This document shows, in pieces, positions 14,171-48,700 of a stretch of 64,000 nucleotides of DNA (position 1 is its first letter; each line of letters starts with the position of its first letter). Both the position numbers and the translations under genes were made by a program. Origin of the DNA: Psammoneis japonica (lineage: Eukaryota); contig QPGO01000081.1 in the NCBI GenBank assembly GCA_008632985.1, forward strand, positions 186,001 through 250,000, in the 5' to 3' direction. The notes beneath the pieces were generated by a model. The model did no database searches. It worked only from the letters and a program-made list of their open reading frames with translations, and was not told the origin of the DNA.

Positions 14171-14178
14171 ACTCCACT

Positions 14179-14184
14179 CACACA

Positions 14185-14215
<31 letters not shown>

Positions 14216-14217
14216 CA
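14179..14217. repeat. (CA)n microsatellite
   Basis: Interrupted CA run at the truncated end of the gypsy relic. Confidence 0.95.
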
Positions 14218-21202: not shown

Positions 21203-21589
21203 CCGTCAACGCCATTGGACAATGAAAAAACACATCACGGCATGGAACGTACTCATAGTATTTGTTTGTTTGTTGGCAAGGCAGCAAGCTGACGTACTCT
21301 TTAAACGCAGACGCAGTTAAGTCACAAAGTTTCCACAAGAGCAATTGTCTCGACTTTCAACTGATTTGATTCTTATTATGCTCGTACGAGTAGAGAGAAG
21401 AAGAAAAAGAGAAAAAAGTAGTCCCACCAGAAGCGAACTCGTTGTCAGAGAATTGAGCTCTCTTAGAGAGAGAGATGCCGCCATCCGCCATTCACAGACG
21501 CGACTGAACACGAACACGCTGCGATCCGCGACCCATAACCACGACCGAATCCGGCTCTCCTCCAAACCTTGCCGGTGGGGCTGCGGCAG

Positions 21590-24170: not shown

Positions 24171-24279
24171 GAGAAGTGCCCAGATTTGATTGCATTGCTT
24201 GCGTTCGTTGATTGAATCGGGCGATACAGCACGAGAAACGATCTTTGATCGATCCGCGACATCTCGGCGAGACGCCGCC

Positions 24280-25136: not shown

Positions 25137-25343
25137 TCCTTTGGAGGAATCGAGAGCTTTTATCTCATGCTCTTTTCGAATGCAGTATCCAAATCATACT
25201 TGTATCTTTCGAGTGACGCGTGCTTTCACGTGAAATCCTGAACTTATTCTCTGCTACGTCTGACCCCAGCACGAACCCCTCCTTCGAAATTGTTGCCCAT
25301 TCATATTTGGCAAGGTACCTCTTCTTTTCTTTTGAAAACCACC

Positions 25344-26498: not shown

Positions 26499-26929
26499 AG
26501 ATCAATGACTCCTCACCAACCCGCTATTGTTGACGCTGCGGTTGGAACCTCGATCTAAAGTCAAGCCGCATTTTGCATATCTTTTGACATTTTGGAAAAC
26601 AAATCAAACTATGCCATTACCGGGAAGAATCCCATCTCCTCAATTCGACGGGTGAGGAGCGAGGTTGAGCAGGCACATGCCAAGCAAGTGGGCGATCACA
26701 GCTTCTTATTCCAATGTAGAGAGAAAACAATGTACGGTAGCTTGCGACTACAAAATTCACTCACCCTACATTTACTACTCTCCCATTGAGCTTCTAGATA
26801 GATTGTTAGTGACGAGGTCACTCCACACTACAGCGCATCTTGAGTTACCATCATAAATGACCTTTGCGGTCGCATGGCCTCTCTGAAACATCCCAACGCA
26901 CAGGAGACTCGTATCGTGCTCACGGCATT

Positions 26930-29530
26930 CTCGACCCTGTCATTGACAGTTTCAAAGGCAAACAAAGCTGATCTGTTGAGTACACGGACATCATCACCAT
27001 TGAAAACTGTTTTTCGTGCTTTTTTTCCAATGCCCAAGCCACGATGGTCATGACAACTTTGTCCCGCTCATTTGCCCCAATCAAGAAGGGCCAGTTGGCC
27101 CAGACATCACCTGGGATGGTCACATGCATGTGTCTCCCCAACCCCATCACATCTTAATCTGCAGCTTTGGAGAAGGCCACAAACCCTTTTTGCCATGGAC
27201 ATGGTGCCTTGGCCCAGAATTTTGATGCAGTTTGTGCCCCACCCCAGGCTGCACTCTCCATTGACAAGATTTTCACCAGCTGCAGTCTCTCTTGCTTGTT
27301 CTGCAAAAAAAAAAAAGAGACAGACTCATCTGGCCATTTTCAGAACTGCTGTAAATGGGTTTTGCAAAGCCAGCTGATTGCTGGGCTGTTGTTGAACCCA
27401 TCTTGACAAAATTGTGGTCATTCACATTGTGAATGAAGCAAAAACCTCTGCCCCTGTCCCACCATCTCTTGATGATGCTCAGTTTCAAAGAGGGGCCAAG
27501 CTAGCTCTGGTTTGCTGTGACCACTTAAAAGCTTCTAGCACGGCAAACAAGGTCAGCAGATGTGCTGCCACCGCTGAGTTGACATCCATCACACCAAATG
27601 CTGATGTCAAGTTGGCCCCTTCTCTTGCATCCTTTCACACTGCTTTGCCTGACAACACAGACTCCCACCCAGTGCACATGTGCAGCACCACTTGGAGTGC
27701 GATCGCTTCCTGGATTGGTTTCTCTGTTGTGGCACATTGATGAGTTGGCACCTTTCAGGCTGACCTCCCAGTTTTTGTTGGTTGTTGGGTTGAGTGCCAC
27801 CCATTTGGGTCATTGTCTGCAGGGCTCAATGTGTGCATGACTGTCACTCTGGCTGGTGGCCTCCCAACTTGCTCTCAATTGGGTCGTCATTCTGAGTGAC
27901 AAGTGGACGACAACCTCCCAGCCATCAATTGCTGAATTTTCTATTGAGCATGGGAGACTGACAGCTGGGAATGATTTGCTGCTTGGTTGGTGTCAGATGC
28001 CACACTTGGATGCTCTTCTTTTGTTGCTCTTTTCAACCACAAGATGATGCCTGATTTTTTTTTGTAGAGTTGAAGGAGCTTTCTTTCTCCCTCTCTCAAA
28101 TGAAAGAAGCAGCACAGCTGCTGACTCTCCATCAACTGCAATGAACAAATGACAAAGTGGCCAAGAGGTGAAGCTGCTCAATCAGGTGTTGGTCCAAGCT
28201 GTGAGAGCAACAGTGAGGCACAATGGTGCACTGGCCAAAGTCAGGAGTGAGACTTTTGTGGTGGCTTCATCAGCGGCCATCTGCTGTTGTCAATGTGGTT
28301 TGAGCTGTTGTGTTGCTGAAAAAGATCTGGGTGAGAAGGGCAGGCAAGTCAATCTGATGAGAAGAACTTGATTCAATCTGGTGCTCTCTCTTTTTCTCTC
28401 TCATTGGTCTTTCCATGAAAAAAACAAGGCAGGATGAAACAGCCAGGGGCACGTGTGATGTAAAAGAAGGTTGCCAAGGTTTTGCAAGTGGCTGCAGCAC
28501 ACAATCATTCAGCCCAGTCTGACATGTTGGCAGGCATGATTGTGGGTGTTGGCAAGATGTGTTGAGAGAGGGAGGGATGTGCCGTTGTTCCCCCACACTT
28601 TCTGAAGCTTGCTTGGTGTGGTGTGGTGTGGTGATGTTTGGGTGATGTGGTGCATCACAGAAAAGATGATGGTGAGGGTGCTTTGGTTGAGCTGTTTGGC
28701 ACAAGCAGGATTGCCAACAATGAGATCAGGTGCTTTTTGAAAATGAGCTGCAGCTTGCTGGGCTTGTGCCCTTGGCATTGTCTTTGGCAACATTTGGGTC
28801 ATCTTTGCACACTTGCATGCCTTCAATCCTGTCACCACAGGCTCTTGATTCCCCCAATTGGGGGGTTGTTGGTGGTGAGGTCACTCCACACCACATCTGG
28901 AGCTGCCATCACATTGGAGCAGAAACAATGTGGGGAAGGACCACATGTCTCATTTCAGAATGGTGCCTGCATGGCATGCATCATTGCCCAGTCATGCCAG
29001 CACCTGCCAACAGCGCACACTGTGGCACACATCAATCATGGCTGGATTCATTCAACAACTCATTTGTTGATGTTGATCATAAAATTTTGCATGACGAATT
29101 GAGACCTTGAGTTGTGCTTTTAAGATTTAAAAACAAATCAAAATGTTTTAACACACAATTTGTTTTGATTGCACTCAGACTCAGGAAAATGAAATTTGAA
29201 ATTTCTAAATTCAAAGTTTGGCTCAATCTTGAGCAAACAAGATTCCCTCTCCTCACTTTCACACTGAACAAAAAGAAAACCCATTCAGAACAGGGAGTCT
29301 GCAACTAAGAACGGGTCTCATCATGCATTCAAGAACACTGCTCTCTCAAATGTTGGTGGATCTTCCCCTTGTTGTCACCACAGGTTGGCTTCTTTCCATC
29401 ATTTCCAATGCATCAAATCTTGGCAGCAAGAAACCATCCTTTCTTCAAAACCAAAATCTCCAAGATGACTCATGTGAAGGCATGGCTGAAGATGTTGTTG
29501 AGGTTCAAACAACAGTGTGTCACACTGACA
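26930..29530 (+). repeat. Segmental duplication copy A (partner 33710-37640); forms most of depleted block 3 (~26950-30950)
   Basis: Collinear from tgacagtttcaaa (26944 / 33724) to cacactg (29521 / 37633), e.g. gagcaaacaagattccctctcctcactttc in both. Confidence 0.9.
29335..29530 (+). pseudogene. Mutated copy of the first ~65 codons of the gene at 37450
   Basis: TLLSQMLVDLPLVVTTGWLLSIISNASNLGSKKPSFLQNQNLQDDSCEGMAEDVVEVQTTVCHT aligns with MLLSRMLEALPLVVVVGWLSVVANASNPNSEKPSFLRNRNLQGDSCEGVAEDVIEIQTIIYHT; ATG changed to ACA. Confidence 0.92.
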
Positions 29531-30349
29531 AACTTGTCTTGGTGGTGTGCAATTTGAAGTCCTCCATGATTCTTGGCTTCTGCAGCAATGGCATGGTTCT
29601 CACCACCAAAACGGACAAAAAAGTGGAGTTGGTGACTCTGCCTGATGGTGCTGTCTTCAGAGAGCACATCTGCATTGAGGGCTTGACTGGAGATCCTTTT
29701 TCTTCCACACAAGTGAAAAAGCACAAAACGTGAGTTGCGGTGTTGAAACAACTCAAGCCCAGCGAGAGCAGTGTGGCCATGTGGGAAGACAAGATCATTT
29801 TTTCATCCACAGGTCCATGCTCTTGTGCAAGTCTTGTGGGTGCTCCAATGTCTTGGTTTCACACCTTGAGGCACTGTCTCTGTCCTTTTTGCCTTTGAGG
29901 TTGCAGTTGAACACATGGGCTGCCAAATGCATTCCTTCACACACAGCACAAACAAGGGACAAAAATGCATGAATCCACCACAGAAGTTTTATCAGCCAAG
30001 TGGTGAGAAGTTTGAGAAGCTGTGATGTCCACATGTGCTGGGAACCATGCTCCAACATGCAAAGAGGCTTGCCACTTGCTCGCTCGCTCACTGCCAATGC
30101 AAGCCTTCCAATGCAGCAGCCATGTCATTTTCACTTTGAAACTCACAATCACAGAAAAAGCAGCTTTTTTCTCTGCAAAACAAATCCACTTGAGACTGAC
30201 CAATCTGAACCTCAAAGGCAGACACTTTGGACAGGATGCAATGAGCGGCCTTCTTGTCTGCACAGTCTCGCAGCTCTGAGATGCAAGGGAATTCCTCCTC
30301 TTCCAGGATGCCAATGTGGGCCCAGCTGCTGCTTCAAAACTTGTCTGAT

Positions 30350-31159
30350 TCACACTCAGTCTTCACATGAGAGCCCTTTGTCTGTCCTCAGTGTTGTCCT
30401 CCTTGAGATTTCTCTTGAACCAACTGAAGAAAAAAGCACACCTCTCTCCACACACAAGTCTTTGCAACCATCAGCTTCCTGATCCATGACGATGCACACT
30501 GACTTCATGTTGTCCCACCTTAAAAGAGTTGCCCCACCAAGGCAAAGATCACTTGGGTCAGGAATCTCACCAAGCCTCAGAGTGTTTGGCAAGGCATCCC
30601 ACCAAACATTTTTTGTCATGTTCTTGATTTCCAAAGCCTCCCTGGACGTTTCATCAAATCTGTTTTTGGAGAGGCTGATGATGCACATTGATTTTCCACC
30701 ATGAGCACCACCCCAGCGTCAGGCACAAACAACAGCCCTGGTTCAAGTGAAACCCAGTCATGCACCCACTGAGCAACAATGCATTTGCGGTGCTTGTTGT
30801 TGTTGTCAGCGGTGGATTTTTTGATGCGGCAGAGAGCCCAACAACAGCAAAGATGCTGCTCTCAGCGGCAGGGCAGGGCCAAGTGGAATTCTTGGCAATT
30901 CTTTAGTGGACACTTTCATGTTGAGTGATTTTGTCAAATGATGATGAAAGTCCCAATTCGATGTTGCCGAGAGAAAGCTTTGGAGACCGCGCACTTGGAA
31001 ATGGTGTTGGCGCAGATCTGCTTCCAGAAGTCTCCTCAGTCTTGGCTGATCAGACAATGACATTTTGTTCCAGGACTTGCACACTTCGGACACAGAACCA
31101 ATGTCCCTAGCATGAAGCCAACGCATGACGAGACGCCACGTAAAGACATCCATCGTCAT
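30350..31159 (-). pseudogene. Probable F-box protein pseudogene
   Basis: MDVFTWRLVMRWLHARDIGSVSEVCKSWNKM resembles an F-box. The 5' end retains CG; the rest decays into the depleted block. 3' limit uncertain. Confidence 0.45.
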
Positions 31160-31668
31160 GTTGTTTGATCATTGATCAATCTACCGGTGCAGAGCCGACA
31201 CGACAGCGCTCGCACAGACAGACGGAAAATCTGAAAAATGGGCCGTGCGTGCTGGAGCGCTTGGGGCTGTCCCGCCACAATTTAAACGAATGAACATCCT
31301 CAGGTGCGAACATGAAGAACATTAGTGTAATTCTTTCGAGAACTTGATCCAATGCATTTTATTAATGCGGTAATTTGAAAATAAAATTTTAATTAGGGAG
31401 AAAAATTGTCCTCACGACTGAATAACTGCCATCGGCCAGAGCTGACCAAAAAGCCGTTGAAAAAATTTCGTCGCTGTCGCGCTCACAAAAATAGTAAGGC
31501 GTGGTGTTCAAGCCATTATTACAGTAACAACTAGAGGAGTGGGGTTTGGGCCCTACTGTCTCCAACAACAACAAGCGAGAGAACGACGGCATACATTAGG
31601 CACTGCTGTCAAACATAAACTGCAACAGTTTTTGCGAAAGATTTCTGTGTTGCTCGCAAAGATTCACC

Positions 31669-33428
31669 ATGCGGGGCTACTTTGCAGCCTCCGTGGGCTT
31701 TGGTGTTCTCGTTATTGTCAGCTCTGTTCAAGAACCACAAGAAAAAACACCGAGAGTTCGTCGACGTGATGACATAGAGAAAGCAGTGGATGATACCCTG
31801 GGCGAGACCTTGACACACTGGGTGGAGTAGATCCCGTGGCAAACAACGGGGTCAAAACTTACAACACTCCAGACTCTGGCTCTTGGCCCTCCTTCAGCGA
31901 TTGGAATGCGTTAGAGTCTGCCCTTTCAGCCGGTGCTTCACTCGACGGTCCCTTCATTCGTGGCCAAGGTTGGAAATACTTTTGGGATTGCTCAACGCTT
32001 GGTATCAATTCGTACTCCATTGCAGCAGGAGGCGATGGCGTTTGCATGCAAGGTCCGGCCTGTGCCCGTGATTTCTGTGATCCCGACGCTGATTATGACC
32101 TTCCGGCCTACGTTGCTGACGTGAGGACTCCTCAAGATATTGGCAAGGCTTTGGAGTTTGCCAACAACCACAACATTGCCGTGTCCGTCAAGACCACGGG
32201 TCATTCCCTCACGGGAGCCTCGACAGCTAGAAATTCTTTAATGATTTGGATGCACAACTATCCAAAGAATGGCACCATTGTCAGGGACTACAAGGATTCG
32301 TGCGATGATAGCATTACTCACGATGCAGCAGTGGCCATTAATGGAGGTGAGACATGGAATGATGTTTTGGAGGCTGTCAAGGGCGAGTATCACATGGTCA
32401 CTGGTGGTTGTCGCTCTGTCTCAGCCGCTGGGGGATGGCTTCAGGGATGTGGTCTGTCCTATTCGAGCCGCACCTATGGCATTGGAATTGACCAAGTGAT
32501 TGATTTTGACTGTGTGTTGGCAAATGGTGCCTTTGTAGAAAAGGTGGATCCCTGCAATGAGCCCGATATATTTTGGGCGCTGCGAGGAGGTGGAGGAGGG
32601 ACCTTTGGAGTCGTGACAAGGATGCACTACAAGCTCCACCCCGTGACACCCGTAACGAGACTCAAATGGAGCATGAGTGGATTGCCACTCGCGGAACAGG
32701 CGGACAGATTCAAACATCGATGGATGGATTACTGGCTTGACATCAGCCCAGACCTTGACAATAGGTGGAGTGGCTCATTTGATCCTCAACGCTGTGATCT
32801 CACCTTCATGGGAGATCAGGACCAAGCCCGTGAGAGCTTTGTGAATGCTTTTGATACGTGGCACGGTGAATCAACCGATGCAAGTTCCTTTTCTCCGTTA
32901 CCGAGCTCAACAATGGAAACATTTGACAACTGGTATGAGTTCATGGGAGGTGCTGGGGCCTACAACCAGCCGACAATTCAGGAGCTCACGGGGCTTATTT
33001 TCTCAGGAGCTCATGAAATGCGTGCTCGACTGGTGCCCCGTGAGGTTGTGATTGAACGCAAGGAAGAACTTCTCGACATAATGAAACAGTGGTCGAAGGG
33101 TAACCCACATTTTGTCAACTACTTTTTGGGTGGAAAGACAAATGAAGTCGCTGACAATGCAACGGCTGTCAATCCGGCCATGAGAAATGCTGTGTTTCAC
33201 CTAACGGCTTTTGATCAAGAGACCGGTGACTTGATTCGCAATTTTCTCCCCAACAACATCACTGGCGTGTCGTTCAATCACCACTGCGTCTTGGAACCCA
33301 ATTGGCGTCGTGCTTTGTGGGGATCAAACTATGATCGCTTGGCGCAGCTCAAGAAGAAGCACGACCCGAATCATGTCTTTAACTGCTGGCATTGTGTTGG
33401 CTACCAAGGAGAGGAGCTGGTGCAGTAA
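31669..33428 (+). CDS. FAD-linked oxidoreductase, berberine bridge enzyme-like; signal-peptide segment is out of frame with the main ORF 31836-33428
   Basis: VKTTGHS (covalent FAD His), GGWLQGCG, FWALRGGGGGTFGVVT, WGSNYDRLAQLKKKHDPNHVFNC. Upstream MRGYFAASVGFGVLVIVSSVQ starts at 31669 in another frame. Confidence 0.88.
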
Positions 33429-33709
33429 AGCCACTTGAAGGCGCTTGTCTTTGCAACAGACAGTAGAACGAAGGAAACGTTTGTTGCTTGGGCTTTTTGT
33501 GTTCTGCAGTAGTGAAATGGTTTAGCAAATAATGAAGCTAAAGGAACAAGCAAGAATGCTGCTAAGGCTTTAATGATCAAGCATTTCTAGCTTGATCACC
33601 CTCAGAAAGCCTCTACTCTAAAGCAGCCAGTGGCATGTGGCTCGCGTTTCTGGAGTGCGCATGTAGCACTGCACATTGCGGTCCGACACGCTCTTCGAAA
33701 CTTGCCTCC

Positions 33710-36700
33710 AAAATCGATCCATGTGACAGTTTCAAATGTAAAGACAAAGCCAATCTGTTCAGCACATGGACCTCATCATCACTGAAGACCCTTCTTTGGT
33801 TTTTTAGCTGATGCCCACACCACAATGACAAATTTGTCCTGCTCGTTTGCTCCAACCAAGAAGGGATGGTTGGCCCAGACAGCACCTGCGCTGGTCGCAT
33901 GCATTTGTCTCCCCCAACCCCCCAACACACACACACACACACCTTAACCTGCAGCTCTGGAGAAGGCTGCAAACCCTTTTTGCCATTGATGTGGTGCCTT
34001 GGCCCAGAGTTCCAATGCAGTTTGAGCCCCATCCCAGACTGCACTCTCCATTGGCAAGGTTGTCACTGGCAGAGTCTCTCTTGCTTGTTTGGCAAAAAAG
34101 AGACAGGTTGTCTGGCCATCTTTGGGACTGCTGTGAATGGGCTTGCAAAGCCAGCCAGAGCCAATCACTGGGCTGTTGTTGAGTGGGCCCAGGCCCATTG
34201 TGCAGTGTGCAAAGTGGGGATTTTCAGTGAGCAGAATGTGCGGCGCATTGCAAAGAGTGCACACTGAATGGAATGTGTGCAGTGCAGCACCAGGTTCAGG
34301 TGCAACTGTGCTTTGTTGCCAGCAACTGGCAGCAGCAACATTCATCACTTCTTGATTGCATTTTACATTGCTGCTGCATCACATTGCCAGCACATCACAT
34401 TGCTGCTGCATCACAAATCACATTGCTGCCACACTGCATTGCCACCAAATCACATCCCTTTTGCCAACAAGAAAACGACATGACAAAATTGCACCATGCA
34501 AGTGCACTTGAGCTGAGAAAGAGCTCTCTTGACTCAAGGCTTCTCTTGCAGCACTGCTGACAGTCTTGACCAACATCACATGTCTTGTGCAAATGAAAAA
34601 AAAGATGCGACACAATGGCATCATGCAATGTGTTGTGCTGAACTGTCTCAACAATGCACTTGAGATGAGGAAAAAAGTTGCTCAGCTGAAGCACTGGAAA
34701 GCCGCACAAGGGCCACCAGATGCACAGCTCCAGACATGGCTGAATGTGTCTCATGGTGAACATGCCGCCATTCCCAAACTCTCATGGTTTCCTGCCTTCT
34801 TTTTGTGCTTGCTCCTTCCCTTGGTTGATGTGCGCACATCATGGCATGCCGATTTCACCAGTTTCATCTTGTCCTGGCACTTTGCTTTAGTTTCTTCCTC
34901 ACTCTCCTGCGGTGCCTTTTCACAACTGCAACATCATGCACATCTGGATCATGATCAGAGCAAAACTCATTGATGTCTTGACCTGTCCCATTCCCCTTCC
35001 GCTCAATGCTGTGCACCAGTTCACAAGCTTTCCAAAAGATTTGAGCGGGTTTTTGAAGTGTTCACAATCCTTGTCAAAGCTCTTCATTCTTTTCAGACAT
35101 CTTGAACACAGAGGCAATCAACTTGTTGGCTGGTGGTTGCATGGCCGCACCTTTCTTTGTTGCATCTTTGGCAGCAGCTTTTTTCAGCAGCCTTCCTTGA
35201 AGTTGCCAAAGCTTTCTTTGGTTTTCTGCCTCTGATTTCTTTTTCTTCCAACTGACATGACCACTCTGCCGACTGACATGACAACTCTGCTTTGACAATG
35301 AAAAGTGTCTCTTGTGTGAACAGATGGTGTGGCGCAGAAGGAACGGCAACAGCTGCTCAGATGTCAACAGCGTTGCTTGGCTTCTTGCTTCCTCGTTCAA
35401 CTGGATGTTGCAAGTCTTGCCATCATCCATCACCAGAGACATGCAGAATTGCACATGCTGCACAAGTGCCAAAAAAGAGCACATGGGCCTGGGCCTGTTG
35501 TTGAGCCAATCTTGACAAAATTGTGATCATTTGCATTGTGAATGAGGCAAAAACCTCTGCCCTTGTCCCAGCACCTCTTCATCATGATGCTCAGCTTTAC
35601 AAGAAGAGCCAAGCCAGCTCTGGTTTGCTGTGACCAGTTGAAAGCTTTGAGCATGGGGCACAAACAAGGTCAGTGGATGCACTGCCACGGCTGAGTTGAC
35701 ATCCATCACACCAAAGGATGGCATCAAGTTGGCCCCTTCTCTGCATCCTTTCACATTCCTCAGCCTGACAATGCAGACTCCCATCCAGTGCGCACACACA
35801 CATGGCACCACTTGGAGCAGGATTGCTTCCTGAACTGGTTGCTCTGTTGTGGCACATTGATGAGTTGGCACCTTTCAGGCTGGCTGACCTCCCAGTTTTT
35901 GCTGGTTGCTGGTTGTTGGGTCAAGTGCCACCCGCTTGGGTCATTGTCTGCAGGGCTCAATGTGAGCATGACTGCCACCCTGGCTGGCCTCTCAGCTTGC
36001 TCTCAATTGGGTCATCATTCTGAGTGGCACAAGCAAACAACATCTCAACCATCAGTTGCTGAATTTTTTCTGTTGACTGTGGGAGGCAGACAGCTGAGAA
36101 TGATTTGCTGCTTGGTTGGTGTCAGATGCCATGTTTGGGTGCTCTTCTTTTGTTGCTCTTTTTGCTCTTAAGACGATGCCTCAATTTGTGGAATTGTGCA
36201 CCTTCTCTCTCTCCCTCTCTCAAACAAATGAACCAATGCAGCTGATTTTTTATCAACTGTGACAAACAAACAACAGAGTGGCCAAGGTGGAGCTGCTCAA
36301 TCAGGTGTTTGTCCAAGCTGCAAGAGCCCGCCAAAGTCAATCAGGGAGCAAGACTTTTGTGGTGCTGGCTTCATCAATGGCTGGCTGAAAATGTGGTCAA
36401 AGCTGTCGTGTCACCAAAAAATCTGGGTGAAAAGGGCAGGCAAGTGAAGCTGACAAAAAAGGCTTGATTCAATCTGGCACTCTTTCCCTTTCTCTCTCAT
36501 TGGCATCTCCATTTGCCACCCGGCAGAACAAAGCAGGGGGGGGCATTTTGGGAGCGTGAAAGATGCAATGCAAAAGGAGGTTTCCAAGGTTTTTTGTGAG
36601 TGGTTGCTGTGCACAAGCATTCAGTCCACTCTCACTTGTTGGCAGGCATGGTTGTGGGTGTTGGCAAGAGATTGAGAGTGAGAATGATGCGCCCCTGCCC

Positions 36701-37640
36701 CCTCCTGTTTTCTGAAGCTTGTTTGGCAGCAGGGCATTTGGTGGATGACATGTTGCATCACAGAGAAAGATGGGAGTGCTTTGGTTAAGTGCTCTTTGGC
36801 TCAAACAGCATTGGCAAAAATTGGGTTGGGTGCTTTTTGAAAAATCGGCTCTGCAGCTTGCTGGGCTTGCACCCTTGGGCAAGAAATGGCTGCTGGTGCC
36901 ATGGCAACTTCATCATTTTTTGTCTTTTTGGTGGTGTCATTTGGGTCTTTGCACTTTTTGCAGGACTTCAATCTTGTCACAGGCTCTTGATTCTCCCATT
37001 TGGGGGATTGTTGGTGGTGAGGTCACTCCACACCACATCTGGAGTCACCATCACGTGTTTCAGAACCTCATCTGCGTGCGTGGCATGCATCAGTCATGCC
37101 AGCACGCTGCCAAACAGCGCGCACCCACCATTTGGTCTACCGCACGGCACGCGTCAATCGTGGCTGGATTTATTCAACAATACATTTGTTGATGTTGATC
37201 ATAAGTTATTGTATGGCAAATTGAGATAGTATTATACTTCTCAGGTTTATTGAAAATGAGAATATTTTAATATAAAATTTTATTGATTGTATTCAGGCTT
37301 GAAGGAATAAAAATTGAAATTTCTAAATTTGAAATTTGGCACATCTCGAGCAAACAAGATTCCCTCTCCTCACTTTCCCCAAACAAAAGGAAAACCTGGT
37401 CAGAGTAGGGAGTCTTTAACCGGAGACGGGTCTCATCGTACAGTTAAGAATGCTGCTTTCCCGAATGCTGGAGGCTCTTCCCCTTGTTGTCGTCGTAGGT
37501 TGGCTTTCCGTCGTTGCCAATGCATCAAATCCTAACAGCGAGAAACCATCGTTTCTTCGAAACCGAAATCTCCAAGGTGACTCATGTGAAGGCGTGGCTG
37601 AAGATGTTATTGAAATTCAAACAATAATATATCACACTGG
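33710..37640 (+). repeat. Segmental duplication copy B (contains the hAT-like insertion; depleted to ~37070, unmutated after ~37200)
   Basis: Collinear with 26930-29530 apart from the 34184-35497 insertion. Confidence 0.9.
34184..35497. mobile_element. Non-autonomous hAT-like DNA transposon, ~1.3 kb
   Basis: Inverted repeat GGCCCAGGCCCAT (34186-34198) / ATGGGCCTGGGCC (35483-35495); 8-bp TSD TTGTTGAG (34176-34183, 35498-35505); empty site ctgggctgttgttgaaccc in copy A (~27381-27399). Confidence 0.8.
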
Positions 37641-39906
37641 AAACCCTTTCAATGTCACACAAAGCGAGCTGGCAGCTCTCGAATCTGCTTTTCTTTCTGT
37701 ATACAATCAGACAGCCTCGAGCTCTTGTGGTGAAAATGGGTTCCGCACTTTGGACAACGTCACAATTGTTTTAGAAATAAATCCCGGACTCACGAGAACA
37801 GACATGGCGGATTCGTTGACCAGGCAAAGTGAGCCCGTTCGATCTCAGTTTTCCTTGCTTTACCGAGTTTTCCTTCGTTGTGTCGGATGTAGAAACAACC
37901 CCCGACTCTTTCAGCCCGCGACTAGTGCTCGTCGCCAGCTCCAAAACAAGGAGCATATTTCAGAAGAAGGAAATAATTTCCCAACGCCTAAAGGCGTCAA
38001 GGGCGTAAAGCCAGAGCGATCTCTCCTTCTCACCAAAAAGACCCCCGAAGAAGACCCCAAAGCCGACATTAAAAAACTGAAACGGTTCAGTGGATCGCCC
38101 AAGTCCAAGTACAGCATTATCGATGAAATGGAGTTCCTTGTCACTGCCCGACAAGACGACGAATGCCAATGTGAAGCGCCTCTTACAGAAGATTTTATCG
38201 AACCGTTCAATTCTGTTGTCCGTGGACTCATGACGTTTGACGTGTTAATGAATGTTGATTCTGTGGATGCTGTCTTTGAACTCGATGACGTGGATTGCTC
38301 TGACACCAGCTTTTTCGAGACAGAAATTGAAGTGAAACATGTCGGCAATCCTAATGAGCTGACTTTTGGCGAACTCATTGCTCTTGAGGATAGCTTTCGT
38401 ACAACTTACAACAACCAGAATGCTTTAAACGGCGACACCTGCGACCCCCTGTTTCGCGTGCTTGACACGGTCACCATTCTTCCGCTTGATAGTCCAGCTG
38501 TTAACGGTACACGCATGTTTACGTCAATATACCTCGCTTCTGGACGATGCAGAGGTTGTGCTTCTAGCTCTAACGTGTTCAGTCTTGAATCTCGGCGGTC
38601 GCTTCAGCGGTCTAACCCTGAGCCAAGGTTCCTTCAGCAGATAGTCCAAAACAACACGTGCTTTTGCCCGATGGATTTTGATCAGAGACCGCCGACTAGC
38701 AGTGAGTTCTTAGATGCCTTTGAGAAGAATAATGATGTTCTACGGGATGCGGGCGTGTTGGTCAACATCAACTCCACTGAGTCTGTGACCGATCTGATAA
38801 CTCCTGGTCTGTCGCCTTCTCCAACGGAGGTTCCGAACCTTCAGCCAACACTTTCACCAAGTTTGGTTGGAACGCCATCTCCAACACGTCAAGACATGTT
38901 CCCGAGTCAACGACCAACTACACCAGCGCCAACTCCAAGAAGCACTCCGAACCCTACTCGACGAGTTACTCCCAATCCAACTCGTCGAACGACGTCCGCA
39001 CCAACTCCCAGAATCACTCCGAATCCTACTCGTCGCACTACACCAGCACCATCTCCTCGCACAACCCCCAATCCTACCCGTCGAAGGACGTCAGCGCCAA
39101 CTCCCAGACTCACTCCGAATCCTACTCCTCGCGCTACACCAGCGCCATCTCCTCGAGTGACCCCCAATCCCACACCTCGCGCTACACCAGCGCCATCTCC
39201 TCGAGTGACCCCCAATCCAACTCCTCGCGCTACACCAGCGCCATCCCCTCGGGTGACCCCCAATCCCACTCCTCGCGCTACACCAGCGCCATCTCCTCGG
39301 GTGACCCCCAATCCCACTCCTCGCGCTACACCAGCACCATCTCCCCGCGTCAGTCCAAATCCGACGCCTCGAGCTACAACAGCCCCGACTCCTCGCCAGC
39401 CGACACCGAGTCCAACGCCAAGAGTCACTCCGGGTCCGACGCCTCGACCTACTCAACCTACACCGGTCACGACACCTGAAACACAGAGACCAACATTCAA
39501 TCCGACGCCAGGAGGCTCTCCAGCCTCGACTCCGGGTCCAACGCCCCAAGCATCACCTGGTTCAACACCTCGACCTACACCGGCCACGACACCTGAAACA
39601 CCGAGACCAACACTTAATCCAACACCAGGAGGCTCTCCAGCCTCCACTCCGGGTCCAACGCCTCAAGTACCAACTGGTCCAACACCTCAACCTACACCGG
39701 TCACGACACCTGAAACACCGAGACCAACACCACAAGGAACTCCAGCCTCGACACCGAATCCGACACCCGGTCCTGATGGACCTACGTTGCAGCCAACGCT
39801 GAGTGTGCCAAGCACTCCTACTCCATCTCTCGATCCTGCATCCCTTAGTCTCGTCCCCTCCTTTCAAGGAACTCTAAGCAATGTACCAACAATCATCGCT
39901 CCGTGA
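37450..39906 (+). CDS. Secreted mucin-like protein: repeated Cys-containing modules plus Pro/Thr/Arg-rich tail, 818 aa
   Basis: Signal peptide; repeated EL.ALE..F...YN....C....R.LD.VTI..RC.GC module; RNLQ/RQLQ/RSLQ/RFLQ motifs; long P/T repeats. Confidence 0.88.
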   Translation: MLLSRMLEALPLVVVVGWLSVVANASNPNSEKPSFLRNRNLQGDSCEGVAEDVIEIQTIIYHTGNPFNVTQSELAALESAFLSVYNQTASSSCGENGFRTLDNVTIVLEINPGLTRTDMADSLTRQSEPVRSQFSLLYRVFLRCVGCRNNPRLFQPATSARRQLQNKEHISEEGNNFPTPKGVKGVKPERSLLLTKKTPEEDPKADIKKLKRFSGSPKSKYSIIDEMEFLVTARQDDECQCEAPLTEDFIEPFNSVVRGLMTFDVLMNVDSVDAVFELDDVDCSDTSFFETEIEVKHVGNPNELTFGELIALEDSFRTTYNNQNALNGDTCDPLFRVLDTVTILPLDSPAVNGTRMFTSIYLASGRCRGCASSSNVFSLESRRSLQRSNPEPRFLQQIVQNNTCFCPMDFDQRPPTSSEFLDAFEKNNDVLRDAGVLVNINSTESVTDLITPGLSPSPTEVPNLQPTLSPSLVGTPSPTRQDMFPSQRPTTPAPTPRSTPNPTRRVTPNPTRRTTSAPTPRITPNPTRRTTPAPSPRTTPNPTRRRTSAPTPRLTPNPTPRATPAPSPRVTPNPTPRATPAPSPRVTPNPTPRATPAPSPRVTPNPTPRATPAPSPRVTPNPTPRATPAPSPRVSPNPTPRATTAPTPRQPTPSPTPRVTPGPTPRPTQPTPVTTPETQRPTFNPTPGGSPASTPGPTPQASPGSTPRPTPATTPETPRPTLNPTPGGSPASTPGPTPQVPTGPTPQPTPVTTPETPRPTPQGTPASTPNPTPGPDGPTLQPTLSVPSTPTPSLDPASLSLVPSFQGTLSNVPTIIAP
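38911..39420 (+). repeat. Coding tandem repeat, 48-bp unit (PRATPAPSPRVTPNPT)
   Basis: About five near-identical units at 39127-39370 flanked by diverged units. Confidence 0.92.
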
Positions 39907-42600
39907 GGTACGTGTACCGTCAAAAACAAAAGAACGATTTCTATCCCTTGGCCAAGTCAAAAATCTCACCTTTTTGAAAACATGTGACTGGTATTTTGCA
40001 GCATTTCAAGAAGAATTCATGTATTGGGACGAACAAATTGCAGGCGAGATGGCTTGTTAGAGAGAAGTAGTGAAGTTATGAAAACTCGTGTCTTGTGTTT
40101 TTTTTTTTTCATCAGGAAGATTGTTGGAACTCATCCCTACACGTTGTTGACCAAAAAGGGTGCCAATAGATATAGATACGGTATGTACATAGCAGTGCGA
40201 CAGAAAAGCATTGATTAGATTTACAGAATTTTTCGGTTCCACGATTTCATACATAGAGATCTGGAATTTGATCGTGGACGATGCGGGGATGATTCAATGC
40301 CGAAGGATTATGAGGCGTTTGCTGTACTGTAGCTGGCATTGAATGAATATTTGGGCTGTACTGTGGAGAAGAGACTGGTTGTCAACTGGGTTGTATTGAT
40401 GGACATGAGAACCATTTTTATAATCGTACATTCCGTCGCATTTTGAAGCGCAGTCATCACACTTAGCTAATACAGGCTTATAAGAATGGCCACGAGTCAT
40501 TTTCTGTCACAACCATCCGAAGCAGACCTTTTTCCACGAACATGTCTGTTGCACACGCAAAGACAGTCTTGTGGCTCCAGAGACCGAAAAGTGACTTGGA
40601 CAGGAAAAAAGACAGGCTGCGTGTGGCCCATCGAGGGGCTGGTGCATCATTTCTCGCCCAACTCTTCCACTGGTGCCCAAGAGCTACTTCAGTGAATAAT
40701 GCCTTGGACTCTTTGTGCTTGCAAGGAATTAATTGCAAGAGGGTGAAACCGCCTGCTGAACCATTGTGATCAAAAAGTGAGTGCTTCCTCCTTGCTCCGG
40801 GACATATTCACAACCGCCGATGACCGAAGACATTTTGAGTGATGTCAAAGTCATTCTCAAGGATTTTTACTCATGAATGAATACATAAAAGAAAACCGGT
40901 ATGTTAGAGCTCTCGAAAAACGCAACCCCAAACCTCAACGCTCAACGCGCACAACGTACAACGTCATCTGCCATTTTGGATTTGCCATGGCGTGTTTATA
41001 TTTCGGACGAGCACTGTGTTTTTCCGAAGAGGCTACCGTAACCTGTGCTCTTCTGACCGATGCATGTGATGTTGCTGTGTATGGCCAGCCAATTGAGCCC
41101 CTTGTGGGGACGCCCGACAGCTGCATGACCCGACATGAGTGCAGAGGTCGCACAAATCCTCGGCTGATGCAAAAGGGGCCGCGCGACCAGACGGCAACAA
41201 TGCATCACGAGGAAGAAGAAAAAGTGTAATTTACCGGTTTTCTGCATTGCACTCTTTGCGTGTTACGGGAGAACTGTCGCGACACTCTTTTGCCATCGTG
41301 TTGTCAACAGTTTTGGATCCCCTCGACTTTTTGCTACCAGTAAGAGCGGAACGATTGTTACGATTGAGTTCTCATTTCATGCGCGCCCTTGCTACTACTC
41401 TCTTTTCGCTCTTACCGACAATGCTTTGGCATTTCGAGGAATGCCCATCTCAATCGCCATTGTCGTCATCGTTGTCGTCACGTGTTCTCACTCTGACGTT
41501 GGAATGCGAACTCCACCAGAAACGCGAAGGCCGTTTGCACGTTCCGTTGACGTTTCTTGTCAGACATGGAAACAGTTGACACGACGTCTGAAATCGTGAC
41601 ATGGACTCTTAAGTGGAGCAGACTGTCACATAGAGCTTGACACGCTGATGAGAACTCATGTTCCCCTCTACTAGAGTACGTGATAGTGATATGGCATTCA
41701 TAAGTGTTGGTCAAACATTTATATTCGCGTTTTGCCGTTCGACAGATAAACAAACACAACGAAGGCATAAACGGGAGAGGTGTCCGGACACCAAGGGCCA
41801 CCGGATTTCCCCCCTCTCCATGGTATAGTGAAATGGTACTCATAAGTGGTGCCAAACATTTATTGTTGAGACACCGTGTGATTGATAACAACGAAAAGCA
41901 TGAGAACTCCATTCCCCCCTCGTTTTAATAAATGTTTCCCGACATTTATTACTGTCGACTGAGACGGCCAAGACCTCTGTCGCAGATTTGTTATTGGAGT
42001 TCCATCTGCCTTAAATTGAGAGACATGAGAGCCATAAATGTGCACAGAACAACCCGGGAGCGATTGCTGCAAAACCCGTTCACTTGTTGTCATAAAATTG
42101 CAAACGACGAAAACAGGAACGATAGTGAAACAACGACAACACAACGAAAGTGACTTTTAGAGTACGATACCGACAGGTCAGTGGTTTTAAACAATTGGAA
42201 CTACCATCAACATCAGAAGATACCAAGCGTCAAGGACTGTCTTGGTCTTCGAGAATCTCAACCAAAAGAAGGTGACACTTACTTTTCATTATGCTCGTGA
42301 GCACTCCGACTTGCGGATTTCTCTTCGGTGCTTTGGTATTGACGTGCTTAGCTCCAGATGTGACGGGCCAAAAGGAACAAGCTCGGCAGTCGATACGAAG
42401 CACAGAACAGCGAAATCGGAGCTGATTTTCAAGCATGTGTTGTTCCGTGCGACTGAAGCACCTGTCCTTGCTTCATCTTGAAATCACTTGAGGCTCTCTG
42501 CCAAGAGCGTCCCGCCTTGTGCAAGACTGTGCAATGCACCTTCGAGACCATTGACTAACATCTATTTTGATTTGCCTTTTTACAACGCAGGGCAAGCACC

Positions 42601-43737
42601 ATGCGGCTTGGCACATCTCTTACTTTCCTCACTGCCATTGGAGGAATGGCAGCAGCTCATGCACAGCCGAGTGTCAAGCACGTCTTTTTCCACATACCTG
42701 CTTATGGCCGAAAGATGTTTAACGCGTATCTAAATTCTGGCAAAGCGCATTGGTTTGCGATTTATTTGACAGGCAGGGAAACGTATCTTGACATAGCAGC
42801 TGAGCCATACAGTGACGGCCGTGTCCTTGACGACCCTATGATTGCTCTGTATAATTCAGATGGCATTTTGCTTGCGGAGGACGACGATGGTGGTCCCGGT
42901 GTGAGGAGCACGCTGTCATTTGGCGTTGGCTCCGGTAGAAATATTTATGATGGAGAGGAGTCCTACGCGGGTTCCGACGGACCGGTCCCTCCTGCTGGCA
43001 CTTACTACATTGCGGTGGCAGAGTATGGAGGCCATTTTGCTGACTACCAATTTGACTACCTCTATGAGGCCGGAACAACCTTCAGTGGCGGGCGCTATCG
43101 ACTTACTGCCTATACTGACACTGATCTGCTGCCACCAATCGAGCGGAATTTTGGCTACTTGGTCAGCAACCAGAACTACCGTTCACGTCTTTATGCTAGT
43201 GAGGTCCATTTGTTCGAGTTTCGATTGACAGGCCGTGAAACCTTCCTCGCAATCAGCACTGGTAAATCTGACATCGACGACACTATGATTGGTTTGTATG
43301 ACGTCCACGGCAAGTTGATTGCGAAGAACGATGATGGCTGGGGAGATGGACAGAGCATGCTGACTTTTGGCCCTGAGGGTAAAGACGGTCCTATCCCCGG
43401 GAGTGGCACTTACTTTCTTGGTGTCGGGGAGTACCATACCTCTTTTGAAGATTTCTATATTAATGTCAAAAGCACGGGATATGGTGGTGGCTACTACCGC
43501 GTTGATTTCTTAGTTGAGGTAGACACTTCTCATTGCGGAATTTGGAAAAGATGCACCACTGGTCAAGGTAACGCAGGATGCGAATTCTGTCGTCTATACA
43601 GCAGCAATGCCAAGCGGCTTACGTGCCTCAAGCTTGATACTATCCAGTACCACCTGTCGAGAAGTGGCTGCGACCCACCGGACGATCCTCCCAGTCGGGG
43701 GTCTTGCTTGGCACGGAGGGGCAAATGTTTTGGATAG
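42601..43737 (+). CDS. Secreted protein with two bacterial-type PPC/DVUA0089-like domains and a Cys-rich tail, 378 aa
   Basis: Signal peptide; internal duplication LTGRET.L.I..D.MI.LY...G.L.A.(D/N)DDG..S.L.FG..DGP.P..GTY...V.EY. Confidence 0.78.
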   Translation: MRLGTSLTFLTAIGGMAAAHAQPSVKHVFFHIPAYGRKMFNAYLNSGKAHWFAIYLTGRETYLDIAAEPYSDGRVLDDPMIALYNSDGILLAEDDDGGPGVRSTLSFGVGSGRNIYDGEESYAGSDGPVPPAGTYYIAVAEYGGHFADYQFDYLYEAGTTFSGGRYRLTAYTDTDLLPPIERNFGYLVSNQNYRSRLYASEVHLFEFRLTGRETFLAISTGKSDIDDTMIGLYDVHGKLIAKNDDGWGDGQSMLTFGPEGKDGPIPGSGTYFLGVGEYHTSFEDFYINVKSTGYGGGYYRVDFLVEVDTSHCGIWKRCTTGQGNAGCEFCRLYSSNAKRLTCLKLDTIQYHLSRSGCDPPDDPPSRGSCLARRGKCFG

Positions 43738-45739
43738 CCTTCTTGGTGGGCCCACCAAGGACGCGCAATGTCCCCTGGACGTAGATGTCGGAATGTTCCA
43801 TTGGCATGAACCAACAGGAATTTGCAACCGCTGTGAAGATTTACATGATCAAAACCAACATTAGATAAAGGGTCCATACATTTTAGAAGATTGACAGTGC
43901 ACATCTCCATTTTAGAAGATTGATGATGTATAAATCCGTTTAGAACATTAGCAATGCACAGATCTACTTTTCATTTTGAGTTTTTACAGAGCGTTGCAGT
44001 GTTGATAAAACTTGAACCAGGGTCGGCGAAACGAAGTTGGTTCTATTGTACGGTACCCTGCTCTAACAGGTGGAAGAGACTGGGGCGGGCGCGTGAACTT
44101 TGGGGGACGTCTCATCCAGCCAGCTGCTGGCAGAAGAAAGTCTGCTCGTCAGTGCATCTATAGAGAGTCTGTCCAGCGTTCACCGAAACTGGCAAAACCC
44201 CCAAAACGCATTGATTGTCAGACTGTTTCAGTGCAAATTCTACGCAAGATTCTTTGGCCAGCAGCTGGCTGGAGATGCAGTGGTGCAACAACGTGGGCCA
44301 GAACAGAAGATATTCCTTCGCGAGGTCGTCAGAGTGCACCTTTTTTCACAACAAGAGTCCACCACATCCACATTGGTGGAGATGGCTCTGTGGAAAATCG
44401 CTGGTTTCACCAATTTGCCATGTGAGTCAAGCGCCAGATTGAGAGTCACGCTGCTCCTGGAGGCCAGCCAGCACAGCCACAAACTTCCGTGCACCAGCCA
44501 CCAGTGCTTTGGCTCTGAGTGCCCTTCCTTCCCACCCACAGAACATGTGCACGAAAGTCTGAAAACTGTGTTCATTTAAATCCTCTAAAAAAATGCATGA
44601 TCTCTTCTTTGTGGGTGGTTGTGTGTGTCATCTGCTGCACATTGCACACATCTCAGCACTGCACATGATGTCGAATGATGGTTGCTGGCTGCACATTTTC
44701 AGTGCTTGGCTCCAGATCTGAGAGGCCAAAATGTCATCAGGCTGTGGAGCAAGCTTGGCTGTCAATGTGATGCAGTGATCATGCGCAGCAAAATTGGCGC
44801 CAATTTCAACCTTGTCAAAGATTCTGGCACTGTCCACTTTTGCCGCAACTGCATCCAGGGAGGCACAATGGGCGCTGCTGGTGGAAGAGAAGCTGCTGGG
44901 GGAAGACCTGATGGAGGGCACCCACGGATGAAACTCAACAATTTCTTCAGCAAAGACAAGCCAAAAGGGGACAGCAGAGTTCTTTGTGAAGAAAAAGGTC
45001 CATGCACTTCATCTGCTTTGCACACCCTTGATTTCATTTTTTGGAACAAACCATTTCTCAAACAGCTGCAAACCCATCTGCATGATTCCAGGAATCTTGG
45101 AAATTTTCAATTTTTAAAAATCCACGTGACTCGCGCTCGTGGATTTTTAGAAATGCAGATTCTTAAAAATTCCCAATGCATGTTTTCAAAAACAGATGCT
45201 CCTTGTTTTAGAAAATGACGCAATTTCGTAAATCTCCCCTTTTCATTGTCAAAAATGTGTGAGTGCCTTTTTCTCATGCACGCTGATTTGAATTGCGGCA
45301 CCTCATCAAAGGCGGACTGCCAGAATCACCTCTTCCAAGATGTGCCAGCATGGGGCAGAGCAGGCGGGAGAGAAAACAGCATTGTCAACAGAGAGACAAC
45401 AACAAAAAAACAAAGGCTCGCAACACAGTGAAGCAACACTCTTGTTTGCATTTGGTGTTTGTGAGTTGTTGGATCTCAAATTGTGCAAATGACATGATCG
45501 TTGAGAAAGTCAAAATGACCGTTGACAAATTGGCGTGACTTTCCACTCTTAAGAATCAACTGTGGTGTGTTTAAAAATCAACGTTCTGGGGAATGCAGAT
45601 TTTTAAAAATGGAGATTTCTGAAATTCCGCGCAACAGATCCATCTCTTGCATTGTCTCTTCATGACTCTTTGTCATCTTCTCATTGCTTTCATGCAAATC
45701 CTCATTGTGTTGTCCAAAACCTCCAACATCAACCTCAAC

Positions 45740-48700
45740 ATGTCAACCCCCGATCCGCAACCAGACGTTGCTGCTTCCGCAAACTTGTTCCCCACAGAAA
45801 TGGAGGTTGTTTCAGATCTGCGACCGGAATTGAAACATCAGAAGACACGGTCCATGGCAGTTTTCTTGTTTGTGAAACAAGAGAATCTGCCAGATGGAGG
45901 GCAGCATTGCATGTCCAGAGTGCCAATCCATTGTTTGCACTGGCAAAAGAGGCTGCAACATTGTCACTTGCCGCAACCATGCTCCGAATGTGCAACTTGT
46001 CTGTGCCCCGAACAAAACACAAGAGAGACGTGGTCGCAAGCATTGGCAAAGAAGAACAGCCAAAACAAAAACAACCCCGATTGATCTCAGCAACAAAAAT
46101 GACAAGGAAGCAATGATGCCATCACCCCCAGTTGACATCAACAGGAAACAAACAGGTGCGGACAGTGGATCTGGTGGGGATCTTGTGTCAGCAACTGAGA
46201 AGATTCCAGAACCCTCTGCAAAGGACAAAGAAGAAAAAGAAGAGAAACCATGTTTGGTGCGGGCATCATCACCCCCAGTCAAGAGCAACAGCAAACAATT
46301 GTGCACAGTCAATGGAGCTGGCTAGGATCTTGTGTCAGCCGCCAACAAGAAAATTGCAGAACATTCTACAAAACAAAACCAAACTTCTGTGTTCACAGTG
46401 CTGCCACACTTCCACCCCGCAACTCTGGCAACAAGCTAACCCACACCCCCAGCACATGACCAGTGCGGCAGGAGCATGTGACAATTGGCTCGAATCGGCA
46501 TCACCCGAAGGTGACGCTGCGCCAAAGCAACTTGCGACAGTTCTTGTGCCACGTGCAGCCAAACGCTTGGCCTCTTTGATGCTCGACTTGAACATGGGTT
46601 TGACCACAGCCAGCCAATTTCGAATGTGATGGGCAGAGTGAGTGAGATGTTCATGAACTGAGTCGAACAGTTGTGCCCTGTCCTTTGCAAGACACTCATC
46701 TGATCTCGAACAAATGGCCCAAACCTCTGCCTCAGTGTCTCTCTGCTGAGACGACTTCCTGGCATCCGAATCGTGGCCGTGAACATCATCGTCATGGGAA
46801 TCCCACAGCTCCCACCATTGCTCCCAAACACAATTGCCAACAGTTGCTGCCCAATCTAAACGTTTCTCTTTGTCTGAAAGATCCTGATGCACTCCACTTG
46901 ACAAAAGGTGAGCACACTGAGTTGCATTCCACTCACGAGAGAAGCATCCGCTGAAGACATGTCTCCATCCGATGGCATCCTGGGAACGGAACAATGCCAC
47001 TACACTCCTGTGAAGACCATCTGAATGCATCAGTTCTTCTTGAAACCAAGACTCAATGGATGAAATGATCAAGTCATGGATGGTTGGTGAAGTGTCAATC
47101 TCGTTGCACTTTTTCCGCAGACCTTGTAAAAACTTTCTGAGCCATTCTTCGTCACAAGGACATCTTAGAATGTGGTCGCGGTCTTCCATTGGGTGCTGGC
47201 AATGAATGCAACAATCAGGTCGTACCGGGTTATGCCGGTGCACGATCTTGTCAGTGGGGAGCAAGTCTTGTGCCAACTTGACAGTGCTCACCTTTCGTCT
47301 GATGTTTCGTGACATTAATTTGGAATGTGCCTCCCAATTGACATGGACTCACACACTAAATCCGACCAGCCACACTTGTCTTTCATGTGCTCAATGAGTG
47401 CAGGACTGGATGCCTCGAAACGGAGGGTCAGTTTGAAGTCCGAATTTACAGTGGTGTGTTGGACAACTAAATTCACCAAACAATGAGGAGTTCTTGGTGC
47501 CACCAGTGTGTTTCCTGAACAGTGACCATGACATCGACTCGCCAACCCATCAGCTCGGACATTCAGTTTGGCTGGCAATGAGAGAGAATCGAAAGGTGCA
47601 TCGTCGTCTTGATGTCCTTTCACCCACTGAACCTTGACACGCGTTCTGGAAGACCCACCGACAGAGACATTTGACATGTCAAGAGTCGATTGATGCATTT
47701 CATGCAGTGAATCCCATTCAGCTGATGGCATGTTCGCCACATGGTGTCGTTGGTGGTAATCGTGGACTCGGTTGGATTCATCCAGATCGTCTGGCAAAGG
47801 TGGCAAGGAAGCAAACTCTGAAGCATGCTGAACCAATGAGCAGTTGTTGCAATGAATGTCCAAGCCTGGAGGGAAAGTCAATTGACAACATTCCATCGTC
47901 CAAAAAATGAATCGCAAAATGGAGAAAATACCGTGCGCTTCTGCCCGGTGCGACGAAGGACGGAAACCAAACACGGGGCCGGCGCAATCAACAAAAGGCA
48001 AGCCAGAAACGGTCAGTGTCCATCCGAAAGTTCCACGGAATTCAATCACCGATCCATCACTGCCTGCAGAAGCACGTGATGATCTGAGACAATCTGCAAT
48101 TTCAAGTGTCGACTTGTGCAGTGAGATGTCTTCGAATGGCGAGGCTTCCCATTGTGGGAGTGACTGCAGCATCATCAAGAAATCGTTCAGATTGGCAGCA
48201 AGTTCAGGAACTGTCACGGGAGACACAGAAGAAGCCAATCTCCACTGGCCATCTTCAGCAGCAGTTGCCATTGCAGGGGCAGCTGATGGAGACAAATCAT
48301 GCAATGTTTCCAACTCGGGTGCAGACTCCACACAGTTGTTTCGCAATGGGAAGACTTGAAAACCTGAATCAGTTTGGATGTGTGAGCATTGTTCATCTGG
48401 TTTGCAGCATGCTGGGTGCGTCATTCGCATGTCCAAAGAAGAAACGACCCACTGTCCCAATGGACCTTTGAGTGTTGTTGCAGACTCCACACACAATGGG
48501 GAACAAAACCTCTTCCATTGTTTCCATGCATGCGCAGACGGGCGCTGTTGTTCCACTGGGTTCAACCTCAATGCTCCGCCAATGAGGGAGCGTTTGCCCT
48601 CCAAGGCACAGCAATCTGGAGACCGACCGTCCGGTGGAGCAACATCCGAAACGGTGAGAACATTTGGATGCAATCTGCAAAAATTAACCCACCTGACCTC

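Follow-up and report, generated by a model that had tools for sequence, protein, structure and literature searches.

Here we examined a 64,000-nucleotide stretch of the diatom Psammoneis japonica (the window; contig QPGO01000081.1, forward-strand positions 186,001 to 250,000, from the 91-Mb assembly GCA_008632985.1), in which TA and CG dinucleotides have been turned into TG or CA over bounded domains. The window contains a two-copy segmental duplication, one copy of which (B) runs into an intact predicted gene, gene B, and the edge of an erased domain lies at 37050-37140, upstream of this gene. Our observations support genomic position as what decides the fate of a sequence; duplication is not sufficient. 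Normal DNA (~30-50 TA/kb and 45-60 CG/kb) alternates in the window with domains of 3-5 TA/kb, in which the observed/expected (o/e) ratio of TA falls to 0.05-0.09. A base-composition effect was rejected, as GC content is equal in both (0.46-0.49 on either side of edges) and the substitutions are polarised. Segmentation used a hidden Markov model (HMM) over 680 kb in three blocks, the window included, and the genome-level counts given here rest on these three; the TA-erased fraction in them is 47-62%. A preliminary description of the window had placed short gradients near 8450, 16000, 21550, 24150, 26950, 31000, 44200, and 62550. The HMM recovered all eight within ~200 bp and added an edge at ~33730 that the description had not named.

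Copy B spans 33724-37650 (+) and copy A 26944-29538 (+). The two align as A 26944-27395 and 27381-29538 to B 33724-34182 and 35489-37650, at 74-76% identity. Paralogs of gene B elsewhere in the genome keep aligning to B past the endpoint of A, which identifies B as the parent and A as a truncated, converted copy; A retains from B the upstream DNA, the putative promoter, and the first ~65 codons. An assembly artefact was rejected: run X1 yields separate DNA contigs over A (28873-31139) and over B (36102-39153), with a depth of ~60-65 in each and zero substitutions, so both copies are real. The erased domain of copy B (33730-37130) is bounded on the left by a gene 3′ end and on the right by a gene 5′ end. 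Its interior (33751-37050, 3300 bp) retains 8 TA and 30 CG, 38 in total, compared with 29 TA and 19 CG (48 in total) in the 513 bp at 37138-37650 (Fisher p 6e-21). The A homologue of this spared stretch (518 bp) has 6 TA and 2 CG, or 8 together (p 1e-8). Over B 37060-37650, copy A reads TG or CA at 19 of the 28 TA and 17 of the 22 CG sites of B, and the reverse occurs once; the converted TA sites became CA in 10 cases and TG in 9, which indicates change on both strands. The sparing in B includes 32 non-coding sites, 19 of them converted in A, and 16 coding sites, for 10 of which a synonymous route exists and of which 15 are converted in A.

The return is staggered. CG reappears from 37054, ~400 bp before the ATG, and TA from 37138, ~310 bp before it, leaving a fringe at 37054-37138 in which CG is kept and TA is still erased. 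The statement in the preliminary description that A is converted while TA and CG return in B over ~37060-37200, at non-coding and synonymous positions as well, was thus borne out, with this stagger added. Between the fringe and the ATG lies a spared AT-rich region (37138-37449, +), a putative promoter and 5′ untranslated region by its position. Within copy A (29020-29538 against B 37060-37650), CG became CA 15 times and TG twice (p 0.002), while TA changed both ways equally; this CG-to-CA bias is without counterpart in the adjoining converted DNA. Sequence context was rejected as its cause, the effect of the 5′ base on CG loss being weak (0.13-0.25).

Gene B itself (37450-39906, +) is an intact open reading frame (ORF) of 819 codons that starts with the ATG at 37450. 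The predicted product has a signal-peptide-like start and Pro/Thr-rich repeats and belongs to a family in this genome. Gene B gave no Pfam match, and among 8000 candidates scored it had two relatives, unnamed or hypothetical. A possible GT..AG intron lies at 39907-40070, directly after the stop codon, so the true C-terminus may differ. Within the gene, a 48-bp coding tandem array (38962-39383, +; 8.8 copies) keeps 11 TA and 38 CG. The retention of CG and TA that had been described for its 39127-39370 portion is confirmed (5 TA and 22 CG in 244 bp), though a 244-bp array is a weak test of position against duplication. Four linked paralogs of gene B on C62, 10-17 kb apart and 83-87% identical, have a normal 36-40 TA/kb.

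Dispersed and duplicated sequences allow position and duplication to be separated. We compared a 510-bp miniature inverted-repeat transposable element (MITE), which has at least 40 copies in the genome; all 40 near-full-length copies were used, drawn from the 40 of 84 candidates that were scored, which makes the copy number a lower bound and biases the set to similar copies. TA conversion reached 219/286 in the 13 copies with both flanks erased, 150/414 in the 18 with one erased flank, and 6/197 in the 9 with neither; the corresponding CG counts were 166/377, 64/536, and 7/256. The flank effect persists once age is accounted for (partial r -0.43, p 0.005). Copy L135, which is genic and old (6.4% divergence at other sites), has 3/24 TA converted, and the young in-domain copy L131 (2.3%) has 21/23, with 9/399 other sites changed. 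The 18 one-flank copies show more conversion toward the erased side (permutation p 0.01). In four of the copies, picked afterwards and by eye, there is a step from 1/41 TA converted on the spared side to 41/47 on the other; even when the element is fully embedded, its left part is somewhat less mutable (116/158 compared with 103/120). Since the halves of such copies are spared beside unconverted DNA, selection on individual sites fails to explain the sparing. The preliminary description had allowed that selection alone might account for the spared sites. That explanation falls at the level of single sites and survives as selection on whole genes against silencing, which is weighed below. The window's own copy of the element, at the edge of a domain (62589-63098), keeps 22 of 24 TA.

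Gene copies behave in the same way. A FAD/BBE oxidase gene forms an island between two domains (31100-33584, +) and is one of three copies, all spared; their coding parts are 96-97% identical, with long open frames and normal TA and CG, and one pair has 35/42 TA and 71/81 CG in common. Sparing extends to gene copies 2.3-3 kb long with identities of 83-97%. To the right of copy A, the window carries a converted copy of a multicopy gene cluster containing an F-box (29527-31170, -). The copy at L026 is unconverted and that at L029 fully converted, and 28 of the 33 TA of L026 in the region matching 29527-30300 read TG or CA in the window. The last ~90 bp of the window copy (31090-31180) are spared; they are converted in L029. 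Together with the MITE copies and the linked paralogs on C62, the oxidase trio and the F-box cluster copies argue for position over duplication.

We next consider where the edges lie. We kept 79 of 122 transitions, requiring a minimum of 800 bp on the domain side and of 1200 bp on the normal side. Genes were called from ORF length and codon score, in unconverted DNA only. Of these edges 37 face 5′ ends and 38 face 3′ ends, with 4 lacking a called gene, and the median distance from edge to gene is 515 bp at 5′ and 625 bp at 3′ ends (p 0.51). The balance holds in stricter subsets (5′:3′ of 18:17, 25:20, 29:26, and 19:18), and among ORFs of at least 300 amino acids within 1 kb, 18 of 37 edges face 3′ ends (p 0.27). 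TA density anchored on the ATG or on the stop codon falls in the same way on both sides and reaches half at ~500 bp (29 and 27 genes), and ~250-500 bp beyond stop codons are spared, as is upstream DNA. Within the window, 6 of 10 edges face 5′ ends, and those at 16200, 26940, 33730, and 44240 face 3′ ends. The length of the non-coding gap matters as well: an erased core occurs in 0/16 gaps of 0.6-1 kb, 1/9 of 1-1.5 kb, 5/10 of 1.5-2.5 kb, and 34/38 above 2.5 kb. The earlier proposal that the process is blocked at active promoters is therefore too narrow, since edges occur with equal frequency at 3′ and 5′ ends and at similar distances. Copy A also held B's promoter copy and upstream DNA and was converted, which indicates that promoter sequence alone is not protective.

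TA and CG loss appear as two processes. CG-erased DNA is nested inside TA-erased DNA, with 0.3% outside it and 18-37% erased for TA only. Of the 79 edges 50 were usable, and at 39 of these the front of CG loss is set further into the domain than that of TA loss (mean 95 bp, where a simulated shared edge gives 0); the 37054-37138 fringe is one case of this lag. This nesting, the deeper CG front, and an element that is TA-poor with its CG kept identify TA loss as the faster, leading process. In the MITE copies, CpG conversion is ~2.5-3.5 times slower than TpA conversion. TA is converted more often on TAY strands (0.26) than on TAR strands (0.14; 27 and 21 site-strands, p 0.001; Y, pyrimidine, R, purine), and TA survival is 0.002 in ATAT compared with 0.49 in TTAA. 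Both TG and CA outcomes occur within MITE copies, and processive one-strand bursts were rejected, as there is no overdispersion (chi2 19.7, df 24). As TAY corresponds to RTA on the complementary strand, the sequence does not reveal which base changed, and the chemistry is inferred.

Protection of genes is not absolute, and there is a slight leak near edges. The window copy of the oxidase has 9/55 TA converted compared with 4/96 in its two sisters (p 0.015), and synonymous NNT|A junctions number 102/377 (0.27) within 600 bp of edges and 822/2425 (0.34) beyond 2.5 kb (p 0.009, with codons that are not independent of one another). Leu/Val and CG measures of the leak gave a weaker trend or none.

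The erased domains contain a variety of sequences. That of copy B includes a multicopy element of 1.3 kb (34184-35488), which carries short terminal inverted repeats, has a direct flank of ~9-10 bp, and is converted and absent from A, and a multicopy ~700-bp repeat resembling a long terminal repeat (LTR) at 36197-36890, which A shares (28079-28780). This is the last repeat of the domain, and conversion in B continues ~160-250 bp beyond its end. Another ~1.2 kb of the domain has the A copy as the only match found. L019 contains two copies of the ~700-bp repeat in the same direction, separated by 3.3 kb, which points to its LTR nature. There (L019:4030-8065, G000:C56), the 2.6 kb between the repeats keeps CG and is without TA, and the whole looks like a younger LTR-type element. 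Reading frames examined by eye point to a LINE-like (long interspersed nuclear element) element at 45500-54300 (-), with TA o/e 0.09, CG o/e 0.69, tyrosine almost absent, and no Pfam hit. Its stretch 46370-48172 is related to 57010-58814 (57% identical), and the two differ in stage, the former having lost TA only and the latter both TA and CG. A Gypsy-like retroelement at 8460-16200 retains RNase H and integrase remnants and has 1.2-kb LTR-like repeats (8853-10059 and 14911-16071) that are only 70% identical; the erased domain reaches ~350 bp past the left repeat match. A small erased domain at 21460-24220 has an internal direct repeat (21605-21882 and 22442-22695), and at 22978-23066 it carries a fragment belonging to the ~700-bp repeat family. 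Those relatives of the protein encoded at 1022-4537 that have names are from diatoms, e.g., Grammatophora, Cylindrotheca, and Nitzschia (32-41% identity).

For the expression of gene B, no RNA record was listed. Contigs of run X2 leave out the GT..AG introns 24446-24548 and 42173-42588, which gives them an RNA-like appearance. They span 24320-26712 and 40961-43953 rather than gene B, and missing cover is uninformative in either direction. The window segments 24320-25027 and 40961-43953 correspond to such contigs with skipped introns, and 40961-42570 is covered although it has no called long ORF. Among the 40 contig entries covered (of 124), listed differences were too few to speak to segregating or heterozygous TA or CG variants.

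The reading we favour, and consider rather probable, is that a silent-chromatin domain carries a fast TpA mutator that prefers TAY, together with slower CpG decay, and that both are kept out of intact genes and ~0.3-0.5 kb around them, with some leak. Gene-free silent DNA would form bounded domains in which two transition processes act on the chromosome: a fast one turning TpA into TpG or CpA (A-to-G, best in TAY) and a slower one turning CpG into TpG or CpA. Within a domain, DNA of every kind would be hit, whether transposon, single-copy spacer, or dead gene copy, and an intact gene with ~0.3-0.5 kb on each side would largely be spared, repeated or not. The edge at 37050-37140 would then be the upstream limit of the protected footprint of gene B, and copy A, as a truncated fragment with silent sequence on both sides, would have lost that protection. 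The domain is presumably heterochromatin with CG methylation, transcription may be what excludes it from genes, and the TA step would be adenine deamination by a TadA/ADAT-type enzyme. A broader form of this model is possible but clearly more doubtful: a default-on genome sanitiser, in which a TAY-specific DNA adenine mutator would act, with essentially no exception, wherever chromatin lacks productive transcription, with neither homology nor foreign origin needed and with the footprint of a working transcription unit as the sole shield. Truncation of the gene in copy A would there remove the licence despite the unchanged promoter sequence.

Several points weigh against the favoured reading. 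Gene calling was crude, and introns and small genes escape it. The gap statistic is partly circular because genes are called only in unconverted DNA, and 9 gaps of at least 1.5 kb are unconverted, among them 39905-42570, part of which lies under RNA-like contigs. In the MITE copies age is correlated with flank state (rho -0.54), and age also predicts conversion (partial r 0.60). The converted part of the duplication (1467 bp) has 30 sites at which one copy reads TG and the other CA, so much of the conversion took place independently in the two copies after they had duplicated. The left ends of homology also coincide with the left domain edges (26944 and ~26943; 33724 and ~33730), which a homology trigger predicts too. 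Finally, TadA and ADAT-like genes are ordinary tRNA enzymes, so the TadA-like proteins encoded in the genome do not identify a mutator.

A homology trigger is the essence of one alternative, in which repeat pairing nucleates the state, which then spreads to flanks as in DIM-2-dependent repeat-induced point mutation (RIP), and genes merely limit the spread. The coincident left ends fit this, as do the multicopy repeats in both domains of the duplication and the fact that much conversion is later than the duplication. However, nine MITE copies in unconverted flanks are nearly intact in spite of at least 40 near-identical copies, the 2.3-3 kb gene copies are spared, and the hypermutable region of Bigelowiella natans described below is reported to be single-copy; we regard this alternative as improbable. 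Somewhat less so, though still unlikely, is that selection against silencing sets the edges: the mutagenic state would spread without a barrier, lineages with a silenced useful gene would be lost, and nearby sites would be spared together, synonymous and non-coding ones included. This accounts for a converted A, which has the same promoter and no useful product, beside a spared B, and for the leak into genes near edges seen in the drop of NNT|A. It sits poorly with the sparing of redundant copies (all three oxidase genes and the four C62 paralogs), with the spared DNA past stop codons, and with the sharp steps inside MITE copies.

TA conversion might also need no dedicated enzyme: a TA-directed lesion or replication error could occur throughout the genome and meet repair only where chromatin is open and transcribed, or a modified thymine in RTA could mispair in silent DNA. 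Protection is symmetric around whole genes and conversion is near-default beyond ~2 kb, both of which agree with this, as do the ambiguity of the changed base and the lack of per-copy strand clustering in MITE copies. Against it, TA changes many times faster than other sites of the same copy, as the counts for L131 illustrate, and in B. natans all such mutations are reported to fall on TpA and in only some lines; this explanation, too, has little probability in our estimate. A specific block at active promoters is the least credible. In its favour are the majority of 5′ ends among the window edges and a CG-kept fringe that is wider at 5′ edges (mean 165 compared with 44 bp, median 98 and 56, at 23 and 25 edges, without a significance test). 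The 38 of 75 gene-assigned edges that lie at 3′ ends at the same distances and the converted promoter copy of A have already largely refuted a promoter-only barrier.

Among known systems, the TA step works like the TpA hypermutation reported for integrated nucleocytoplasmic large DNA virus and virophage DNA in B. natans (Mettrop et al., bioRxiv 10.64898/2026.01.13.699255, preprint). The preprint describes a main hypermutable region that is transcriptionally silent and single-copy, places transposon-related genes among the TA-poor clusters, gives a ~1000-fold raised de novo rate in mutation-accumulation lines, and proposes an ADAT-type deaminase (10.64898/2026.01.13.699255). In its available text the target range is left open, and no edge or targeting rule is given. 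The diatom shares with it, as described, the change of TpA to TpG or CpA on both strands, the regional confinement, and the independence from duplication. It differs in that TA erasure is near saturation over about half of the sampled blocks, that the targets are transposons, spacers, dead host-gene copies, and a promoter copy, and so not only DNA of viral or foreign origin, that CG loss accompanies TA loss, and that edges map to gene ends. Rates were measured in B. natans, while those in the diatom are inferred and only relative within MITE copies. Our literature search, with most subscription papers outside its reach, returned no paper on TA erasure in diatoms and matched only this preprint.

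By spectrum and trigger, the TA step is not RIP. The two share dense transitions in and around repeats, which in RIP arise through the RID and DIM-2/DIM-5/HP1 branches; in Neurospora the latter is reported to mutate adjoining non-repeated DNA via heterochromatin (10.1101/2021.04.05.438447). RIP is premeiotic and requires duplication. It makes C-to-T changes, by which CpA becomes TpA and TA is created (PMC2621366), whereas the diatom destroys TA. Nor does duplication trigger the diatom process, as the oxidase trio, C62 paralogs, and genic MITE copies are spared. The preliminary contrast with RIP, that mutation follows domains and not duplication, thus stands for position over duplication and was overdrawn for RIP itself, given the DIM-2/DIM-5/HP1 branch.

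The CG step has a different counterpart. In the diatom, CG is lost to TG or CA in repeat domains, as the MITE counts inside and outside domains illustrate. Decay of 5-methylcytosine turns methylated CG into TG or CA. DNMT5-dependent CG methylation of diatom transposons has been described (PMC9998398) and is a plausible source of the CG step; it cannot yield the TA loss, which is faster and further-reaching. For the TA step, the A-to-G change recalls TadA and ADAT, and the YAY preference reported for the TadA-derived editor ABE7.10 (PMC10188366) agrees with TAY over TAR. The natural substrates of these enzymes are tRNA, and activity on diatom DNA is putative. CA steps are abundant in domains, so the diatom specificity is narrower than YA.

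The genome encodes candidates for both steps. Two TadA-like genes are L149:895-1623 (G000:C38) and L151 (G000:C26), the first scoring nearer bacterial TadA than eukaryotic ADAT2. A single frame at L150:2-1291 (-, G000:C79) fuses a zinc-dependent deaminase piece to a 2-oxoglutarate/Fe(II) dioxygenase like thymine dioxygenase and probably serves nucleoside salvage, though it may be of note as a base-modifying fusion. The C5 methyltransferase domain PF00145 has 27 matches in the genome; clusters of these domains occur on G000:C297, C301, C10, and C28, several with internal stops, which suggests a mobile or amplified methylase family. A genome search for a TET/JBP thymine oxidase gave no match, but its control was equally empty, which makes the negative uninformative. 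The methyltransferase and TadA-like genes would fit the favoured model, without discriminating power.

With these results, a mutation process so far quantified in a single unrelated alga gains a targeting rule, in which location is decisive and protection covers whole genes rather than promoters. The TA and CG edges can be read as a fossil map of silent chromatin, and the preference for TAY limits where a natural DNA adenine mutator is to be sought. With about half of the sampled genome rewritten, the process affects how transposons die, how pseudogenes decay, and what becomes of duplicated genes.

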